Source of the DNA: Candidatus Omnitrophota bacterium
GTDB taxonomy: Bacteria; Omnitrophota; Gorgyraeia; JAHJTE01
Direction of reading: 5' to 3'
Length of the DNA: 64,000 nt
NCBI GenBank assembly: GCA_040753675.1
Contig: JBFMEB010000001.1
Span: forward strand, 32,498-96,497
Made by a program: the position numbers and the translations under genes. Below are positions 39,135 through 63,283 of the stretch, in pieces. Numbering within the stretch: position 1 is the first letter of the stretch; every line of letters starts with the position of its first letter. A model generated the notes under the pieces. The model was not told the origin of the DNA and made no database searches. It saw only the letters and a program-made list of their open reading frames with translations.

Positions 39135-40118
39135 TTAGAGGGTGGGAAATTTTGAATATTTATTTCTCCAATAATTTAATAAATCCCTAAAAGTCGTTTC
39201 AATGGGTATCCGGGGCTTCCAATTAGTTACTTTTTGAAACTTTGAGGTATCCGGTATTTGCAAAGTAACGTCCGAAGGCCTCAACAATGAAGGGTCGACT
39301 TTGATTTTTATCTTTTTATTAGTCATGCTTAATAAAATTTTTAGCATTTGTCCTACCTTCATAGTACTATGTCCGCCAACATTATAAACCTCGCCCGCTG
39401 GACATTTATTAACCAAAAGCCAGTATGCTCGCACTGTATCACGAACATCACAAAAAGTCCTTATGCTATTTAAGTTACCAACAAATAAAACTGGTTTTTG
39501 TAATCCTTTTTCAATACGTGCAATCTGACGGGCAAAAGAAGAAGAAGCAAATACATCTCCCCTACGAGGACCAGTATGTGTAAACATGCGAGTGCGAATT
39601 GTCTTAATACCATAAGATATAAAATATTGATAGGCTAACATATCCTCTGCAACTTTGCTTACTGCATAAGGACTCGCCGGTCTAAAGCCTTGACTCTCTT
39701 TTATAGGAACTTCGTCTTTTTTAACGTGACCATAAACTTCTGAGGAACTACAGATATGTACAATGGGGTCAATTTTACAATAGCGTATCGCCTCGAGTAA
39801 ATTTATTGTTCCGCATACATTTGTTTCAATAGTATTAACTGGCGCATTAAAGCTGGTCTGCACATACGACTGAGCAGCTAAATGAAATATTATATCTGGT
39901 TTAATCTTTTCTATAGCCTCCAATGTCGATTTGAAATCCAGCAATTCGCAATAATGTAACTCTATTCTTTCCATAATTCCTAAGATGTTCTCTGTAGGAC
40001 TTCTCCAACGTCTGATGCCGTGGATTTTAATATTTTTGTCAGTCAATGATAAAAGATAATCTGCAAGATGACTACCTACAAAACCAGTTATACCAGTAAT
40101 CAAAATATTCCTTCGCAT
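39135..40118 (-). CDS. NDP-sugar 4,6-dehydratase family SDR (GDP-mannose/heptose 4,6-dehydratase-like)
   Basis: ITGITGFVGSHL Rossmann motif, FHLAAQSYV, ETNVCGTINLLEA, YAVSK catalytic motif. Confidence 0.6.
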   Translation of the reverse strand: MRRNILITGITGFVGSHLADYLLSLTDKNIKIHGIRRWRSPTENILGIMERIELHYCELLDFKSTLEAIEKIKPDIIFHLAAQSYVQTSFNAPVNTIETNVCGTINLLEAIRYCKIDPIVHICSSSEVYGHVKKDEVPIKESQGFRPASPYAVSKVAEDMLAYQYFISYGIKTIRTRMFTHTGPRRGDVFASSSFARQIARIEKGLQKPVLFVGNLNSIRTFCDVRDTVRAYWLLVNKCPAGEVYNVGGHSTMKVGQMLKILLSMTNKKIKIKVDPSLLRPSDVTLQIPDTSKFQKVTNWKPRIPIETTFRDLLNYWRNKYSKFPTL

Positions 40119-40146
40119 AATAAACTCCTTCAGGCAATAAAAACTT

Positions 40147-40941
40147 TTATATTTTTTTTATGGTCACTATCATATTATTACCAAAAAGTTGCATTAGTGG
40201 TCTAAAAATAAACTCAATAAAATTAACTACACCATATAAAAAATGAGGAACAAATGGCTTGTAAGTTAAGCCTCCGGACAAAGTATATCTAAGAAAATCA
40301 TGATAAATAAACGAAATTATTTTCAGTCTTTTAAATCTTTGTGTAAAAATATATGCATCTCTCTTAAAAATAATATAAGGCAAGGCCATATTAACCTTGG
40401 TTAGCCTGCCCTCAATAGTCTTATCTTCAATCTTCCAGCGCTTAAGAAGCTTATTGGTATATTCATTATGAAAATTTTTATTCATAAAATAACCGAAAGA
40501 ACTGCTTGAGGGCTCATTACAAACAAATATTCCATCAGATACTAAAACGCGCTGAATTTCTTCCAAGCACTTACCCGGATCCTCAATATGGTGCAAAACA
40601 CCATTAGCATATATAGCTTTTAAAGAATTGTCTGGAAAAGACAAACAAGTAACATCCTCCACACGATCAATCCCTTCAGATTCTACAATATCAGAAGTAA
40701 TTACATTAGGCAAAAATTCTTTTAAGAAACCGCCGCCACTACCTATCTCAAGTGAAGGAAAATTTAAATATTCTAGAGAATCTTCAATTTTTTTAAAATA
40801 CCTATATATAAAATTATAATGCTCAGTAAGTAGTGGACTTTTTTTAATAATACGACGATGTATGGAAATAGCCTCTCTCGAGTCAATATCAAGATTTCTT
40901 ACATCAGGCCTAATAAATATTTTGTTGAAGAATCCGCGCAC
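40147..40941 (-). CDS. Class I SAM-dependent methyltransferase
   Basis: LEIGSGGGFL motif I, acidic motif II. Confidence 0.6.
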   Translation of the reverse strand: MRGFFNKIFIRPDVRNLDIDSREAISIHRRIIKKSPLLTEHYNFIYRYFKKIEDSLEYLNFPSLEIGSGGGFLKEFLPNVITSDIVESEGIDRVEDVTCLSFPDNSLKAIYANGVLHHIEDPGKCLEEIQRVLVSDGIFVCNEPSSSSFGYFMNKNFHNEYTNKLLKRWKIEDKTIEGRLTKVNMALPYIIFKRDAYIFTQRFKRLKIISFIYHDFLRYTLSGGLTYKPFVPHFLYGVVNFIEFIFRPLMQLFGNNMIVTIKKI

Positions 40942-40956
40942 TAGGTTTTAAATTGT

Positions 40957-60814: not shown

Positions 60815-60821
60815 ATTAAGA

Positions 60822-62147
60822 TTAATATTCTAAGAAAATAATTGGAATTAGGTCTGATTTTGTAAATACAGCATCGAGGCCCAAGGTAGCTGCCCAAAAA
60901 AAGCACAGTGCTAAAAAAAACAAAAGTAAGATTCTGATAAGTCTGCCACGATTAATAAATTGTAAAAAAAACTTTGCACTTAAGATTGATAGCGCTGGCA
61001 TGGCTATTAAAAGATATCTTTCTTCTCTATCTTGCCTTAAAGTTAAGATAAATATAACCAATAAAAACCACATACTTAGAAAAGTTAATTCCCTAATTTT
61101 CTCTGAATCTATTTTTTTAATTATTGCTCTTAAAACTCCCAAATAGCCAAATATAAAAATTGGCATCTGGTAAATTAAAGAAACGAAATATATATACCAG
61201 GGGCGGTTGTAAACTAAGCTCAAAAAACCGACTGGCAGGCTCTTAACCTTATTAGTTATAGGTTCAAATCCCCAATATAAAACTTTTAAGCCTCCTTGGT
61301 TCTTAAGGAACAAGTACAGCCAAGGCATGCTAGTTAAAATAACAGAAATGAGAAATACAATTAGCCTTTTATCAAAAATAATTTTATATTTTTTTTCTTT
61401 AGGTCTTGCCTCTATAAAATGAAGAACGATAACCACTAAAATAAATATTACGCCGCTCATCTTGGACATAATCGAAAGGCCGCTAAGCACACCCGCCAAT
61501 AAAGAATAAATTAGCTTATATTTTCGTATTGAAAGTTCGTAGGAAATAATACTTAAGAGTCCAAAAAGCGACACCAAATCATCAGCCCAAATCTTATGGG
61601 CCGTAAGTAAATCAGTCGGATTAAATATTATCAAAAGACTGGCTAATATACCTAACCTAAAGGAAAACAACATACTACCCAAGACAAAAGTAAATAAGGC
61701 TAACAGCAGGCTGCTCGTAAAAGGTATGATGCAGGCGTAAAATTGGTTTTTGGCTTCTAAGGCATTAACTGTTCGTTTAGCAAGCGCGTAAGGAATATCT
61801 GATTTAAATAAATTATGAGAAATAGCAAGTAAGATACTAAGTAAGGGGGGGTGATGAGAAAATTTACTCGCCTCTGCTCCTTGAAAATCTCGAATCAGCG
61901 AAGCTTTTTCTTCTTTACTTAAAGATATAGATAAAAAACCATTATATTTTTCTTCCTCTATATCTATATAAAAAAGATTATAATGCCCTTGAAAAGTAGT
62001 TAGACCATAAGACTGAATCTTTTTGGCTAAGCTTACATAAATTAATTCATCATTATTAGTATGGCTTAGAGTAAAGGTATGAATTCTTAAGAGTGAGAAA
62101 ATGAGAATTAATGCTAGGCAAGATAAAATCTTATATTTGCGAGACAT
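60822..62147 (-). CDS. GT-C fold membrane glycosyltransferase (PMT/ArnT-like)
   Basis: About 12 TM helices; NNDELIYVSL acidic first-loop motif. Confidence 0.5.
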   Translation of the reverse strand: MSRKYKILSCLALILIFSLLRIHTFTLSHTNNDELIYVSLAKKIQSYGLTTFQGHYNLFYIDIEEEKYNGFLSISLSKEEKASLIRDFQGAEASKFSHHPPLLSILLAISHNLFKSDIPYALAKRTVNALEAKNQFYACIIPFTSSLLLALFTFVLGSMLFSFRLGILASLLIIFNPTDLLTAHKIWADDLVSLFGLLSIISYELSIRKYKLIYSLLAGVLSGLSIMSKMSGVIFILVVIVLHFIEARPKEKKYKIIFDKRLIVFLISVILTSMPWLYLFLKNQGGLKVLYWGFEPITNKVKSLPVGFLSLVYNRPWYIYFVSLIYQMPIFIFGYLGVLRAIIKKIDSEKIRELTFLSMWFLLVIFILTLRQDREERYLLIAMPALSILSAKFFLQFINRGRLIRILLLFFLALCFFWAATLGLDAVFTKSDLIPIIFLEY

Positions 62148-63283
62148 TATTTCTTTCTAATGGTCAATAGGCTTAAGAAGAATGAAGAGAATATGACTTG
62201 TACTCCGATAATCATAAAGGTTATGCCGAATAAAGCCAGTCTTTCCTTATCCAATGCGCCGAAATTAACAGCGATCCATTTAATAATAATACGAATATTC
62301 GCTATCAAGCCAATGCTAAAAATTACTATGCCTAACAATATTCCCTTTTCTAAATTAAAGAAGCGTAAGATAAAAAATAAGGTTTTGTCATTTTTTACAA
62401 ATCCTTCAAAAAACGAATAAGTCTTAGCATAAAGACCTAAACTTAATACCTGGAGTCCCAAAATCGCTGCTAATGCACCTACAGTCATCATATGCATATC
62501 GAAACCGTGTCCGGCAATATAAAAAGGTCCCGGTAATAAAACAATTAAAACTATCACTCCCAGAAAGGCTAATATCAATCCAGGGATTAAAAATAGATAA
62601 GTTGGGCTATATAAAAGCATAAAGCGCATATGTCGCCAAGCATCCTTAATAGGATTAAGCTTAGATTTGCCCTTACGCGGCCAATAAGTAATAGGAATTT
62701 CTTTTATATTTAATTTTTCTCGTAAGGCGCTTACGATCATTTCTGAAGCAAATTCCATTCCTGTAGTATGGAGACTTAATCTTTGATATGCCTCTTTAGT
62801 AATTGCGCGCATGCCACAATGTGCGTCTGAAATCTGCGTATGGAAGAACAATCTTAAGATAAAGGAAAGTATTGGGTTACCTATGTAGCGATTAGTCCAA
62901 GGCATAGCACCGGATAGAATTTTACCTTTAAAGCGCGAGCCGATAACAAAATCATAACCATCTTTCAATTCCTTAACAAATTCTGGAATCTGGCTAATAT
63001 CATAGCTATTATCCATATCAGCCATTACCAAATATTTGCCACGTGCTTCTTGAAACCCTCTTAAATAAGCACTCCCATAGCCACGTCTCAGCTCCTTAAC
63101 CACTCTTGCATCAGTTGACTTAGCAATTTCATAGGAATTATCAGTTGAGCCATTGTCAATTACTATTACCTCTCCGGAAACACCCAGATTTTTTAAAACC
63201 GCAAAGGACTTGTCAATGCATTCTTTAACAGTCTCTGCCTCATTAAGACAAGGAAAAATTATTGATATTTCTATCTGATTCAT
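62147..63283 (-). CDS. GT2 polyprenol-phosphate glycosyltransferase (GtrB/ArnC/DPM1-like) with C-terminal TM anchor
   Basis: ISIIFPCLNEAETV...VIVIDNGSTDNS...ADMDNS; 3-4 C-terminal TM helices. Confidence 0.7.
   Translation of the reverse strand: MNQIEISIIFPCLNEAETVKECIDKSFAVLKNLGVSGEVIVIDNGSTDNSYEIAKSTDARVVKELRRGYGSAYLRGFQEARGKYLVMADMDNSYDISQIPEFVKELKDGYDFVIGSRFKGKILSGAMPWTNRYIGNPILSFILRLFFHTQISDAHCGMRAITKEAYQRLSLHTTGMEFASEMIVSALREKLNIKEIPITYWPRKGKSKLNPIKDAWRHMRFMLLYSPTYLFLIPGLILAFLGVIVLIVLLPGPFYIAGHGFDMHMMTVGALAAILGLQVLSLGLYAKTYSFFEGFVKNDKTLFFILRFFNLEKGILLGIVIFSIGLIANIRIIIKWIAVNFGALDKERLALFGITFMIIGVQVIFSSFFLSLLTIRKK

Follow-up and report, generated by a model that had tools for sequence, protein, structure and literature searches.

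A split transketolase and B12-binding-domain radical SAM proteins in a putative heptose-tailoring glycan locus of Candidatus Omnitrophota

What sugar might be made by a gene cluster in which homologs of heptose activation enzymes lie beside a split transketolase and three radical SAM proteins with B12-binding domains? The cluster spans positions 39135-63283 on the minus strand of a 64-kb stretch of Candidatus Omnitrophota DNA, the whole of which was analyzed and is called the window here. The original prediction described a single-unit island of 24 co-directional genes with short overlaps. The shared strand and short junctions were borne out: the ORF listing places every ORF of at least 90 amino acids (aa) in the region on the minus strand, and junctions are small gaps or slight overlaps (4 nt at 41688/41691, 43232/43235, 48463/48466, and 49218/49221; 17 nt at 47681/47697; 1 nt at 62147). 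The gene count was lower, with 23 intact genes and a 60-aa SDR-like ORF (45637-45819) in the region's only sizeable gap. This ORF begins with MKVLFIGGTG, which contains the Rossmann GGTG, matched no NCBIfam model, and is probably the remnant of a truncated SDR gene; it presumably accounts for the 24th gene of the original count. No step in base composition sets the region apart as an island. Rather than a single unit, the region is a composite of a conserved sugar cassette, a second conserved module, and a variable set of glycosyltransferases.

Gene content, homologies, conservation, and the change in the transketolase pocket were computed from the sequence. Pfam recovered every predicted protein class, including SDRs, cupin, kinase, split transketolase, radical SAM proteins, glycosyltransferases, and Wzx. 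There are one GDP_Man_Dehyd/Epimerase protein and three further extended SDRs, three B12-binding plus Radical_SAM proteins, one of them fused to a GT2 domain, and two clear class I methyltransferases plus one weak TylF match. Most Pfam matches pass the threshold by many orders of magnitude, and more than 15 independent loci share the gene order, so domain content and order are far beyond chance. None of the region's proteins reached an NCBIfam equivalog cutoff, and the terms "HddA-type" and "HddC-like" therefore denote family-level similarities. The original observation was thus confirmed, and its interpretation was partly supported.

The first part of the composite is a nucleotide-sugar cassette of about 11.7 kb (39135-50884) that recurs in Omnitrophota and Planctomycetota at 55-80% identity. 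Two gene orders, SDR4-MT-TKN-TKC-SDR3 and SDR2-rSAM1-cupin-kinase, are found at 55-80% identity in these phyla and in unbinned contigs. The transketolase sub-module is also present in Ca. Methanoperedens, and Elusimicrobia, Spirochaetia, and DPANN archaea carry partial forms of the cassette. On the basis of this recurring order and the overlapping reading frames of several genes, the cassette genes probably form one functional unit. The core, which includes a modified transketolase and a B12-type radical enzyme, turns up with very little change in distantly related bacteria and in some archaea, and we know of no characterized example of it. Its product would be an unusual cell-surface sugar derived from a seven-carbon precursor.

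Is that precursor a heptose? The gene at 39135-40118 encodes a putative DmhA-like GDP-heptose 4,6-dehydratase (Pfam GDP_Man_Dehyd, 9e-79) whose top PDB match is the Campylobacter jejuni GDP-D-glycero-D-manno-heptose 4,6-dehydratase (7US5, 4.5e-87). The eight best PDB matches of the RmlC-type cupin (42720-43235; Pfam dTDP_sugar_isom, 6.6e-46) are C. jejuni GDP-heptose epimerases (7ANG, 8DB5, 7M14, 8DCO, and others; ~1e-38), which makes it a putative GDP-4-keto-heptose 3- and/or 5-epimerase. For the HddA-like GHMP sugar kinase (41688-42692), the four best PDB matches are all heptose kinases, including 3K85, 4USK (WcbL), and 4N3O. Among NCBIfam models HddA ranked first for this kinase (139.8 bits; cutoff, 600), and galactokinase reached only 51.8 bits. 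The ManC/HddC-type (guanylyltransferase) sugar-1-phosphate nucleotidyltransferase (40957-41691; Pfam NTP_transferase, 4e-29) scored 149 bits against mannose-1-phosphate guanylyltransferase, 145 against HddC (cutoff, 300), and 57 against RmlA. Galactokinase and RmlA, named beforehand as substrates that would have spoken against a modified heptose, thus score far below HddA and HddC.

Related loci supply what the cassette lacks. SIS (GmhA) and HAD (GmhB) genes occur within orthologous cassettes in Spirochaetia (L036), in Ca. Methanoperedens (L038), and in L039, and a Nanoarchaeota locus carries HAD and GT9 heptosyltransferase domains. The kinase is 54-66% identical to those of L036, L038, and L039; for the latter two, whose kinase genes adjoin SIS and HAD genes, identity is 62-66%. 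In L039, a 62% identical copy of the dehydratase directly follows SIS-HAD. Several observations count against the heptose reading. No gmhA or gmhB homolog is present in the whole 64-kb window, and in the loci of Omnitrophota and Planctomycetota none lies closer than 10 kb to the cassette; the missing equivalog-level matches bear on this point too. In addition, the nucleotidyltransferase scores about equally for mannose-1-phosphate and heptose-1-phosphate, and the dehydratase is also Rmd-like, the reductase Rmd (2PK3, 7e-69) being its second-best PDB match. A heptose precursor is nonetheless supported by the dehydratase, cupin, and kinase matches and by the GmhA and GmhB genes of related loci. 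As originally predicted, the activation and deoxysugar genes, whose PDB matches also include GDP-fucose synthases, fit the logic of GDP-6-deoxy-heptose pathways.

The split transketolase may act on this sugar. The N-terminal (PP domain) subunit of this transketolase-like ThDP enzyme (TK-N, 47681-48466; Pfam Transketolase_N, 3e-33) has the split-chain transketolase 6YAK as its top PDB match (7e-51). It keeps the GDG-N ThDP/metal motif and conserved catalytic His motifs, which we take to be the equivalents of His26, His66, His100, and His261 in E. coli numbering. The top PDB match of the C-terminal (Pyr domain) subunit (TK-C, 46819-47697; Pfam Transket_pyr, 1.4e-19) is 6YAJ (8.5e-31), and its match to Transketolase_C is weak (25.3 bits; cutoff, 25.9). 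Residue roles were carried over by alignment from the E. coli and yeast enzymes. Glu411, Asp469, and His473 are retained in all 120 aligned TK-C relatives, and Arg358 is retained in 113, with a gap in the other 7. None of the 120 relatives keeps Ser385, His461, or Arg520, presumably the phosphate binders of canonical transketolases (E. coli and yeast): Ser385 is Tyr in 119 of them, His461 is Gly in all, and Arg520 is deleted in all. Retention of catalytic residues with loss of phosphate-binding residues argues for sugar tailoring, not pentose-phosphate metabolism, and points to a tailoring enzyme with an altered substrate pocket. An awkward point is that a phosphorylated ketose donor would fit the lost phosphate pocket poorly. 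The two genes sit between those for a CalS11-like O-methyltransferase and a GDP-fucose-synthase-like reductase.

The first radical SAM protein, rSAM1, is a compact 444-aa protein with a B12-binding domain (43232-44566; Pfam Radical_SAM, 1.4e-24, and B12-binding, 3.3e-16). The 3' end of its gene shares 4 nt with the start of the cupin gene. Its family (42-74% identity) is spread over many phyla with an invariant CxxxCxxC motif. It reached no NCBIfam model; the top one, HpnJ, gave 186 bits (cutoff, 577). The AlphaFold2 model (pLDDT, 90) is nearest in fold to AprD4 (TM score, 0.78), followed by TsrM, MgmA, OxsB, and TokK. AprD4 binds no cobalamin, and the B12 dependence of rSAM1 is therefore only putative. 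In some loci (L020 and the archaeal ones), rSAM1 is present but the transketolase sub-module is missing, so the two enzymes may act in separable steps or on separate sugars. None of the region's three radical SAM proteins falls into a housekeeping family in NCBIfam, as the original prediction would have it.

That prediction also knew of no described pathway of this kind that includes TPP-dependent two-carbon transfer and cobalamin radical SAM chemistry. Both have precedents elsewhere: ThDP enzymes such as YerE and PDH-E1-like enzymes perform two-carbon branching of keto sugars, and B12 radical SAM enzymes (GenK, GenD1, and MoeK5) C-methylate sugars. The claim stands for GDP-heptose and cell-envelope glycan pathways, in which, to our knowledge, neither chemistry has been described. 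For miharamycin and amipurimycin, an earlier proposal has split transketolases transferring a hydroxyacetyl group to keto sugars (PMC12247030).

The cassette also encodes three GDP-fucose-synthase-like extended SDRs. SDR2 (44574-45572; Pfam Epimerase, 6.3e-49) always directly precedes rSAM1, and SDR3 (45816-46808; 4.1e-47) always directly follows TK-C; the top PDB match of each is GDP-L-fucose synthase (1.7e-32 and 1.9e-37, respectively). SDR4 (49218-50204; 1.6e-34), a putative ketoreductase or epimerase-reductase, is closest in the PDB to GDP-L-fucose synthases and GDP-mannose 3,5-epimerase and always adjoins the CalS11-like gene. The latter (48463-49221) was originally assigned to the TylF type. 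TylF gave only 19.7 bits, and the family profile of the protein matches CalS11, a TDP-rhamnose 3'-O-methyltransferase (4GF5/3TOS; E value, 1.6e-61; 234 residues), so that it is a homolog of an NDP-sugar O-methyltransferase. This homology supports the predicted O-methylated sugar. A class I SAM methyltransferase (40147-40941; Methyltransf_11, 2.9e-11) belongs to the Omnitrophota-type cassette (66-67% identity, L001-L004) and is missing in Planctomycetota copies.

We consider it fairly probable that these genes make up a three-part locus for a cell-envelope glycan, with a pathway for a tailored, heptose-derived sugar. For this pathway we infer every substrate and product, GDP as the nucleotide, the sequence of reactions, and the acceptor at its end. 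In the first part, which would be horizontally mobile, GmhA, encoded outside the window, would make D-glycero-D-manno-heptose 7-phosphate, which the HddA-like kinase would phosphorylate at C1. After removal of the 7-phosphate by a GmhB-type phosphatase encoded elsewhere, the ManC/HddC-like transferase would form GDP-heptose, the DmhA-like SDR would convert it to GDP-6-deoxy-4-keto-heptose, and the cupin would epimerize C3 and/or C5. The split transketolase-like enzyme would most likely add a two-carbon ketol unit to a carbonyl of the GDP-sugar, either the C4 ketone, giving a branch, or a terminal aldehyde, giving chain extension. At an unactivated carbon, rSAM1 might catalyze C-methylation or an AprD4-like dehydration. 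Keto groups arising en route would be reduced by the three SDRs, and the CalS11-like enzyme would O-methylate the nucleotide sugar.

The finished sugar is probably placed on polyprenyl phosphate by GT2short (50210-50884; Pfam GT2, 2.5e-19), a soluble 224-aa dolichyl/polyprenyl-phosphate-type GT2 encoded by the cassette's first gene, and a GT-C-type protein would transfer it outside the membrane. This route is suggested by the likeness of GT2short to AglJ (105 bits) and dolichyl-P hexose transferase (79 bits) in NCBIfam, by its conserved place at the cassette head beside GT-C-like or DUF2079 membrane proteins, and by a GtrA-type protein in L036. Copies of GT2short occur in L001-L006 (69-75% identity) and, immediately ahead of rSAM1 relatives, in L010, L018, L019, and L021 (49-51%). 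The neighboring protein (50890-52116; Pfam PMT_2, 6e-14, weak EpsG; eight hydrophobic segments) could be either a GT-C-type transferase or polymerase-like; its slot varies across loci and holds a DUF2079 protein in related ones. Weak terminator-like and promoter-like sites lie just upstream of its gene (52142-52178).

The second part is a recurring GT2/HpnJ-like radical SAM/GT2 module, which probably serves to make a further lipid-linked sugar and to modify it by radical chemistry. The HpnJ-like protein (59381-60814; Pfam Radical_SAM and B12-binding) aligned over its full length with NCBIfam HpnJ (393.5 bits; cutoff, 577.6) and has relatives of 63-76% identity in 80 metagenome loci. A homolog of GT2a lies upstream of the HpnJ-like gene in 51 of these loci, and one of GT2b lies downstream in 56 (42-61% identity). 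GT2a (62147-63283; Pfam Glycos_transf_2, 2.6e-26), encoded by the region's first gene, is polyprenyl-phosphate glycosyltransferase-like, with sub-cutoff NCBIfam matches to AglJ (167 bits), dolichyl-P hexose transferase (100), and ArnC (50) and four C-terminal hydrophobic segments (residues 221-376). GT2b (58395-59324; Pfam GT2, 2.2e-23) has generic NCBIfam matches only. The intervening PMT-family GT-C-like integral membrane protein (60822-62147; Pfam PMT, 4.7e-9; eight hydrophobic segments) has a detectable homolog at the matching position in only 2/80 loci.

The third, variable part would assemble the glycan. It comprises EpsE/TuaG-like GT2c (56443-57330; Pfam GT2, 3.4e-33; NCBIfam EpsE, 143 bits, sub-cutoff), a GT4 glycosyltransferase (57276-58394; Glycos_transf_1, 1.2e-31, plus Glyco_transf_4) with an uncertain TTG start that implies a 55-nt overlap with GT2c, a class I SAM-dependent methyltransferase (55746-56435; Methyltransf_11, 4.5e-20, plus Methyltransf_25), a radical SAM::GT2 fusion, and a putative Wzx-like flippase. 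No initiating phosphoglycosyltransferase was seen in 39135-63283. The flippase candidate (52215-53438) is a multi-pass protein with ten hydrophobic segments and a marginal Polysacc_synt match (30.4 bits; cutoff, 28.2). In the fusion (53449-55686), Pfam places the B12-binding radical SAM part at residues ~24-372 and GT2 at ~424-630; it is 100% identical to an NCBI protein of a Candidatus Omnitrophota MAG, and most of the 120 relatives listed, which come from anaerobic lineages, share its architecture. At the other end of the region, a UvrA gene lies 75 nt downstream of the dehydratase gene, the region's last.

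The glycan island (positions 39135 to 63283) was predicted to hold 24 codirectional genes. We found 23 open reading frames (ORFs) of at least 90 aa in this interval, all on the minus strand and joined by short gaps or small overlaps. The 24th gene is probably a 60-aa ORF (45637 to 45819, minus strand) with a Rossmann-type, SDR-like start (MKVLFIGGTG), situated in the largest intergenic gap of the island (45573 to 45815), which is also the only sizeable one. By its sequence, this ORF looks like the remnant of a fourth GDP-fucose-synthase-like (GFS-like) SDR. The corresponding position in related loci holds additional genes or a comparable gap. 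Every protein class named in the original prediction was recovered in a Pfam search of the island proteins.

Transcription runs from 63283 to 39135. The island opens with the glycosyltransferase GT2a, which has membrane segments at its C terminus, followed by a PMT-type GT-C protein, an HpnJ-like B12-binding radical SAM protein (59381 to 60814), the glycosyltransferases GT2b, GT4 (57276 to 58394, minus strand), and GT2c, a class I methyltransferase, a 745-aa B12-radical-SAM::GT2 fusion protein (53449 to 55686, minus strand), a Wzx-like protein, and a PMT_2/EpsG-like membrane protein. The remainder, which we refer to as the cassette (39135 to 50884), begins with a short soluble GT2 (GT2short) and continues with SDR4, a 252-aa methyltransferase (48463 to 49221), the split transketolase-like subunits TK-N (47681 to 48466) and TK-C (46819 to 47697), SDR3, the SDR remnant, SDR2, a radical SAM protein (rSAM1; 43232 to 44566), an RmlC-type cupin, a GHMP kinase, a nucleotidyltransferase, the second methyltransferase of this half, and a GDP-mannose-dehydratase-family SDR. 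UvrA is encoded downstream of the island, and a fragment of an aspartate dehydrogenase gene lies upstream, at the edge of the window. None of the island proteins scanned reached an NCBIfam equivalog cutoff, and neither GC content nor skew across the window showed a step setting the island apart. Promoter-like sites occurred no more often than in shuffled sequence and therefore do not define operon boundaries; the sole suggestive promoter/terminator site pair is at 52142 to 52178. An Rfam scan of the whole window detected no cobalamin, SAM, or TPP riboswitch in or near the island.

We retrieved related loci with rSAM1 as the probe and compared all of the island proteins against them. The cassette, about 11.7 kb in length, recurs with nearly constant gene order, at 55 to 80% amino acid identity, in a further Omnitrophota MAG, in several MAGs of Planctomycetota, and in unbinned contigs from groundwater and other sources. 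It is composed of two parts that also occur separately. Submodule A (dehydratase, transferase, kinase, cupin, rSAM1, and SDR2) is found without submodule B in an Elusimicrobia locus and in DPANN archaea. Submodule B (SDR4, the 252-aa methyltransferase, TK-N, TK-C, and SDR3) is accompanied in Methanoperedens and in further contigs by different B12-domain radical SAM proteins (497 to 656 aa) and, at some loci, by MiaB-like ones as well; in the loci compared, it is always among heptose activation genes. The upstream half of the island differs in kind from the cassette, as it combines a second recurring module with variable genes, namely, the remaining transferases, a methyltransferase, the fusion protein, and the Wzx-like gene. 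This block is replaced by other genes in the syntenic groundwater contig described below, so the stretch preceding the cassette appears to be a variable spot.

The matches of the cassette enzymes to solved structures pointed to a heptose. The terminal SDR was closest to the Campylobacter jejuni GDP-D-glycero-D-manno-heptose 4,6-dehydratase (7US5; 4.5e-87), with the reductase Rmd (GDP-6-deoxy-hexulose reductase) second and GDP-mannose dehydratases also behind. The eight top matches of the cupin were all C. jejuni GDP-heptose 3- or 3,5-epimerases (about 1e-38), and the four top PDB matches of the kinase were heptose kinases (3K85, WcbL, and HddA). HddA was also the best NCBIfam model for the kinase, at 139.8 bits against a cutoff of 600; galactokinase scored far lower, and a fucokinase domain was a detectable relative. 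The transferase scored 145 bits on the HddC model (cutoff, 300) and 149 bits on mannose-1-phosphate guanylyltransferase, with RmlA far lower. The galactokinase and RmlA scores argue against the kinase and the transferase being of those types, and the predicted modified heptose, with substrates assigned through homology, draws support from the proteins that the kinase, dehydratase, and cupin match most closely. SDR2, SDR3, and SDR4 were GFS-like by solved-structure matches; this family provides the C4 reductases of the Campylobacter heptose pathways. A 4,6-dehydratase (DmhA), a cupin C3/C5 epimerase, and a GFS-like C4 reductase are therefore all represented in the cassette, as judged by homology.

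The reference pathways for such a set are those of the C. jejuni capsule (HddA, HddC, GmhA2, DmhA, C3/C5 epimerases, and C4 reductases), Yersinia pseudotuberculosis O:2a (DmhA/DmhB), and the Burkholderia pseudomallei CPS (WcbL, WcbM, WcbN, and WcbK). At the level of enzyme families, the window matches them with a putative heptose kinase of the GHMP type, a putative guanylyltransferase, a 4,6-dehydratase of the extended-SDR type, an RmlC-type cupin epimerase, and GFS-like 4-reductases, and the best solved-structure matches of the cassette enzymes are proteins of those very pathways. By homology, the first steps would work like the GDP-6-deoxy-heptose pathways of Campylobacter, Yersinia, and Burkholderia. 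The window locus differs from these in missing gmhA and gmhB, in having three GFS-like SDRs rather than one, and in its additional enzymes: a transketolase-like ThDP enzyme, a B12-domain radical SAM protein, a CalS11-like O-methyltransferase, and a second methyltransferase. Its proteins also score below the equivalog cutoffs of the known-pathway families. We do not consider the locus a strict member of this group, since it lacks two of the defining genes locally and its proteins stay under the curated cutoffs. Rather, the heptose logic appears to have been extended with enzyme types of antibiotic sugar biosynthesis, represented by CalS11, the proposed split transketolases, and the B12 radical SAM methylases or AprD4. 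Full-text literature searches found no description of such enzyme types in a heptose or cell envelope glycan context. The prediction that the ThDP and B12 radical steps lie outside known pathways agrees with these searches for heptoses and envelope glycans, but both kinds of chemistry have precedents: ThDP-dependent branching of keto sugars (PMC12247030) and C-methylation of sugars by B12 radical SAM enzymes (GenK, GenD1, and MoeK5).

No gmhA was found in the 64-kb window by tblastn with three SIS (GmhA-type isomerase) proteins from related loci, a gmhB (HAD, GmhB-type phosphatase) homolog was likewise absent from the window, and none of ten small ORFs from other parts of the window matched a SIS or HAD family in Pfam. 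SIS genes are present in a Spirochaetia locus (L036), a “Candidatus Methanoperedens” locus (L038), and a metagenome contig (L039), and HAD genes are present in the same three loci and in L037. The HAD domain of the Spirochaetia locus is fused to the transferase and accompanied by the SIS gene; in “Ca. Methanoperedens,” SIS and HAD adjoin the kinase and transferase genes; and in the metagenome contig, SIS-HAD is immediately upstream of the dehydratase. A Nanoarchaeota locus contains HAD together with a GT9 heptosyltransferase domain. The window kinase is 62 to 66% identical to the Methanoperedens and metagenome contig kinases and 54% identical to the Spirochaetia kinase. On the strength of the enzyme homologies and of the GmhA/GmhB genes in orthologous cassettes, we accept a heptose origin. 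That the cassette starts from heptose is the best reading, and it depends on GmhA and GmhB being encoded elsewhere in the genome.

The 252-aa methyltransferase had been predicted to be of the TylF type. Its Pfam TylF match was weak (19.7 bits, under the cutoff of 23), but its family profile matched CalS11 with an E value of 1.6e-61 (residues 7 to 240 against 10 to 244), which retains the assignment to the sugar O-methyltransferases. CalS11 is the TDP-rhamnose 3′-O-methyltransferase of calicheamicin biosynthesis and acts before glycosyl transfer. O-methylation at the nucleotide-sugar stage is well supported by this homology. The substrates would differ, as the actinomycete CalS11 uses a dTDP-6-deoxyhexose whereas the window enzyme presumably uses a GDP-(6-deoxy)heptose derivative.

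The most distinctive enzyme of the cassette is the split transketolase. In alignments to the split transketolase 6YAK and to human transketolase, TK-N keeps the GDG...N ThDP/metal motif and the histidine motifs, which we take to be the catalytic histidines of transketolases; the histidines conserved in the window enzyme are presumably those touching the C1 hydroxyl of the donor in canonical transketolases. TK-C, aligned to 6YAJ, keeps the equivalents of the cofactor-activating glutamate (Glu411), Asp469, His473, and Arg358. The equivalent of Glu411 is found in 120/120 TK-C relatives, and that of Arg358 is found in 113/120, with a gap in the other 7. The position of Ser385, in contrast, is Tyr in 119/120 relatives, that of His461 is Gly in 120/120, and that of Arg520 is deleted in 120/120. 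Arg358, Ser385, His461, and Arg520 (E. coli numbering) are the residues with which the E. coli and yeast transketolases bind the sugar phosphate. Relative to canonical transketolase (EC 2.2.1.1), then, the ThDP/metal and catalytic residues are retained, whereas three of the four phosphate-binding residues are gone. The equivalents of Ser385, His461, and Arg520 are also missing from a second, distant type of transketolase present in other rSAM1 cassettes. Scores on the NCBIfam transketolase equivalog were 208 bits for the N half and 96 bits for the C half, against a cutoff of 488. The two genes overlap their neighbors and are always located between a nucleotide-sugar methyltransferase homolog and a GFS-like reductase. 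The lost phosphate residues, the low equivalog scores, and the overlapping genes with their constant neighbors disfavor a simple role in sedoheptulose 7-phosphate supply. The sequence evidence favors a ThDP-dependent two-carbon transfer onto a nucleotide-sugar carbonyl, the acceptor being either a C4 ketone, which would yield a branch, or a terminal aldehyde, which would extend the chain.

Two more conventional explanations, one for the transketolase and one for the starting sugar, both rank low. The transketolase could be a supply enzyme that, in a reduced metabolism, converts pentose phosphates to sedoheptulose 7-phosphate for GmhA and has no part in tailoring. Sedoheptulose 7-phosphate is both the canonical transketolase product and the GmhA substrate, transketolase genes share loci with SIS/GmhA genes in L036, L038, and L039, a transaldolase-family gene is also present in L038, and TK-N keeps its catalytic residues. 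We nevertheless consider this role unlikely, since the canonical phosphate-binding residues are replaced or deleted at three of four positions in 120/120 family members and are lacking in the second transketolase type as well, both halves score far below the equivalog cutoff, the genes are nested with overlapping reading frames between the methyltransferase and the reductases, and the window cassette carries the transketolase but not gmhA. The absence of gmhA and gmhB from the window would also fit a hexose start, in which the anomeric kinase and the guanylyltransferase salvage mannose or a related sugar into a GDP-6-deoxyhexose (rhamnose-, talose-, or fucose-like) route that is then followed by tailoring. 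The marginally higher score of the transferase on the mannose-1-phosphate guanylyltransferase model than on HddC, the HddA score of the kinase far under its cutoff, the kinship of the kinase with a fucokinase domain, the second-best match of the dehydratase to a GDP-6-deoxy-hexulose reductase, and the 6-deoxyhexose substrate of CalS11 all lean the same way. Against this, the kinase, dehydratase, and cupin all match heptose-specific enzymes best, kinases with 54 to 66% identity adjoin GmhA/GmhB genes in three related loci, and the Nanoarchaeota locus includes the heptosyltransferase domain, making a hexose start very improbable.

Two-carbon transfer onto a nucleotide-linked heptose has partial parallels in antibiotic biosynthesis. 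Split-gene transketolases have been proposed, from context only, to catalyze hydroxyacetyl branching of a keto sugar in the miharamycin and amipurimycin pathways, with 13 further Streptomycete candidates (PMC12247030). The likeness is one of gene arrangement and context, a two-gene transketolase beside oxidoreductases in a sugar-tailoring cluster. The miharamycin and amipurimycin clusters belong to actinomycete secondary metabolism and have nucleoside-linked sugar substrates, whereas the window enzyme is in a cell envelope glycan locus with GDP-heptose genes, in a family distributed across Gram-negative phyla and archaea. NDP-4-keto-deoxysugars are branched by the decarboxylase-type ThDP enzymes YerE/ErwE and by the PDH-E1-like enzymes AviB1/B2 and KbDH-α/β (PMC12247030). 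With these enzymes, too, a carbon unit activated by ThDP is attached at the keto group of a nucleotide-deoxysugar, an activity known for O-antigen or antibiotic sugars in their case and proposed in that of the window; they are from other branches of the ThDP superfamily and use 2-keto acid donors, unlike the transketolase-type window enzyme.

The three radical SAM proteins of the island all carry the cluster motif and scored above threshold for the Pfam Radical_SAM and B12-binding domains. No curated NCBIfam family claims any of them, which argues against their being housekeeping enzymes, an identity that would have weakened the original prediction. Recent duplication of the three genes was rejected, as the proteins have only 28 to 31% pairwise identity. 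In rSAM1, the CxxxCxxC motif is invariant across the family, and the Pfam B12-binding match is 59.7 bits against a threshold of 32.1. Its NCBIfam scores were all below cutoff (HpnJ, 186 bits; PhpK, 167; BchE, 160; AprD4, 121). The predicted structure (pLDDT, 90) was closest in fold to AprD4 (TM score, 0.78 over the full length), and the cobalamin enzymes TsrM, MgmA, OxsB, and TokK were nearly as close. AprD4 was also the best sequence match among solved structures (1.4e-29; 22% identity). With AprD4 as the closest fold and cobalamin enzymes close behind, rSAM1 may catalyze either C-methylation or radical dehydration; the predicted structure and fold search did not separate the two. The location of SDR2 directly upstream of rSAM1 in every locus compared fits either chemistry.

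AprD4 has a sugar substrate and a reductase partner, and the AprD4/AprD3 pair of apramycin 3′-deoxygenation thus resembles rSAM1 and its constant neighbor SDR2. Accordingly modeled on that pair, rSAM1 would be a cobalamin-independent radical 1,2-diol dehydratase, with SDR2 in the role of AprD3, and would remove a hydroxyl group to give a dideoxy-heptose. In favor of this idea are the top rank of AprD4 in both sequence and fold and the finding that the Rossmann-like domain of AprD4 binds no cobalamin (PMC12931638). In contrast to AprD4, rSAM1 has a clear Pfam B12-binding match, its score on the AprD4 model is far below the cutoff of 500 and lower than those on HpnJ, PhpK, and BchE, and cobalamin-binding enzymes are almost equally close in fold. 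We therefore regard the dehydratase as possible but doubtful. As for C-methylation, GenK, GenD1, MoeK5, Fms7, and Fom3 act on sugars or nucleotide-linked substrates and share with rSAM1 an N-terminal B12-binding domain and a radical SAM core. We found no specific sequence relationship of rSAM1 to these five enzymes, as the best NCBIfam models were others. We know of no cobalamin-dependent radical SAM sugar methylase in a polysaccharide or GDP-heptose pathway. The cobalamin-dependent enzymes listed in a review of the radical SAM superfamily include the sugar C-methyltransferases GenK, GenD1, MoeK5, and Fms7, as well as Fom3 with its nucleotide-linked substrate; the words “sugar” and “polysaccharide” are absent from the review, and HpnJ is placed under other or unknown function (PMC12931638).

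The B12-radical-SAM::GT2 fusion protein belongs to a large family in anaerobic lineages (relatives P0122 to P0240), with carriers in Syntrophorhabdus, Syntrophobacterales, Cloacimonetes, Chitinispirillaceae, and Geobacteraceae. Many relatives add GT2, methyltransferase, TPR, or ADP-heptose:LPS heptosyltransferase (PF01075) domains, and the family appears to be without any characterized member.

GT2short resembles the archaeal AglJ and dolichyl-phosphate hexose transferases of NCBIfam. It is conserved with the cassette, beside a GT-C-like or DUF2079 membrane protein, and the Spirochaetia locus has an additional GtrA-type protein. These resemblances and neighbors suggest delivery by way of polyprenyl phosphate: GT2short would transfer the finished sugar to the lipid phosphate, and the sugar would then be attached outside the membrane in an ArnC/ArnT- or Gtr-like manner. 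Both island modules resemble ArnC/ArnT and GtrA/B/C in pairing a polyprenyl-phosphate-type GT2 with a GT-C-like membrane protein. We saw no gene for an initiating phosphoglycosyltransferase among those of the island. The Wzx-like protein scored 30.4 bits on Pfam Polysacc_synt (cutoff, 28.2), had ten hydrophobic segments in a crude hydropathy scan, and had no NCBIfam match. GT2b, GT4, and GT2c had generic glycosyltransferase matches only in NCBIfam. GT4 scored 72.6 bits on TIGR04157, below the cutoff of 400; that family is defined by the association of its glycosyltransferases with radical SAM genes in the Cytophaga-Flavobacteria-Bacteroides (CFB) group, so curated models already record the co-occurrence of the two enzyme types, with no function assigned to it.

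The second recurring module consists of GT2a, the HpnJ-like radical SAM protein, and GT2b. Relatives of the HpnJ-like protein were found at 63 to 76% identity in 80 metagenome loci; GT2a precedes the radical SAM gene in 51 of these loci and GT2b follows it in 56, and the intervening GT-C gene was seldom conserved (2/80). The pairing of a GT2 with an HpnJ-like radical SAM protein is reminiscent of HpnI-HpnJ-HpnK. The module departs from that system in its HpnJ score (393.5 bits against an equivalog cutoff of 577.6), in showing no HpnK in the island, and in its nonconserved GT-C partner. No hopanoid genes (HpnK deacetylase or squalene-hopene cyclase) were seen in the island, where the neighbors are GT2, GT-C, and GT2. 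The 80 loci were compared with the island's own proteins, a scope in which unrelated neighbors such as hpnK or a cyclase gene are outside detection.

The broad conservation of the cassette strengthens the finding. TK-C relatives form more than 120 distinct 90% identity clusters, at 72 to 81% identity. One relative, at 78% identity, is archaeal, which indicates horizontal spread. In “Ca. Methanoperedens” sp. (GCA_028715885.1, JAQUQX010000007.1), the order SDR4-methyltransferase-TKN-TKC-SDR3 is present at 5083 to 9436 with 60 to 78% identity to the Omnitrophota copy, adjoining SIS, HAD, kinase, and transferase genes. Provided that the Methanoperedens MAG is correctly binned, this similarity suggests interdomain transfer of the pathway.

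Together, these results suggest a sugar pathway that is common and apparently mobile and that would involve unusual carbon-carbon bond formation and radical chemistry, in which the steps beyond homology are inferred; the cautious interpretation in the original prediction was largely borne out. Tentatively, and with somewhat less than even confidence, we propose that a transketolase-type enzyme without the phosphate pocket acts on a GDP-keto- or aldehydo-heptose to form a C-branched or nine-carbon sugar, which would also be C-methylated or deoxygenated by the B12-domain radical SAM enzyme and O-methylated at the nucleotide-linked stage, in a pathway spread between phyla and into archaea (“Ca. 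Methanoperedens”). If so, this would be the first transketolase shown to act on a nucleotide sugar in cell envelope glycan synthesis. To our knowledge, the tailoring of GDP-heptose has been described almost exclusively in a handful of pathogens and is limited to epimerase, reductase, and O-methylation steps. The cassette would add ThDP-dependent carbon-carbon bond formation and radical SAM chemistry. Judged by the more than 120 TK-C clusters at 72% identity or higher, it is abundant in environmental anaerobes, and its product is probably a common, uncharacterized surface sugar in Omnitrophota, Planctomycetota, Methanoperedens, and others. A near-identical cassette in bacteria and an archaeon would represent interdomain transfer of a surface glycan pathway. 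A natural transketolase with a remodeled acceptor pocket bears on the unproven branching of keto sugars by split transketolases and is relevant to biocatalytic synthesis of tertiary alcohols. Further, the island ties three uncharacterized B12-domain radical SAM families, one of them fused to a glycosyltransferase, to glycan assembly.

Several cassettes contain a protein of about 317 to 326 aa, absent from the window and without a Pfam match, that is encoded just upstream of rSAM1 or SDR2 (L003/L004, 8049 to 9002; L008, 7976 to 8944; L005, 9002 to 9982; L035, 9041 to 10000). It has the class I methyltransferase glycine motif (YELGCGTG or YEFGCGSC) and may represent an unclassified methyltransferase family tied to the pathway.

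Elsewhere in the window, the Rfam scan identified only a class A bacterial RNase P RNA (4303 to 4659, minus strand; 158.7 bits) and three tRNA genes (5853 to 5926, 6116 to 6190, and 17231 to 17303, all minus strand). About 70 nt at the 5′ end of the RNase P RNA are shared with an ORF encoding RNase H/RVT_3 domains (4590 to 5084); the TTG assigned as the start of this ORF is therefore probably incorrect. Minus-strand genes encode a PilO-domain pilus assembly protein (28393 to 28962), a MotA/ExbB-family channel protein (32969 to 33679), and an 828-aa TPR protein (33698 to 36184). A groundwater contig (L001) carries, in addition to the cassette, the flanking UvrA and TPR genes, and the ExbB-TPR-UvrA arrangement beside the cassette is common to this contig and the window. 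At positions 393 to 2021 of the same contig, two HEPN/nucleotidyltransferase (toxin-antitoxin-like) pairs and a DUF2079 gene replace the upstream glycosyltransferase/radical SAM block of the window.
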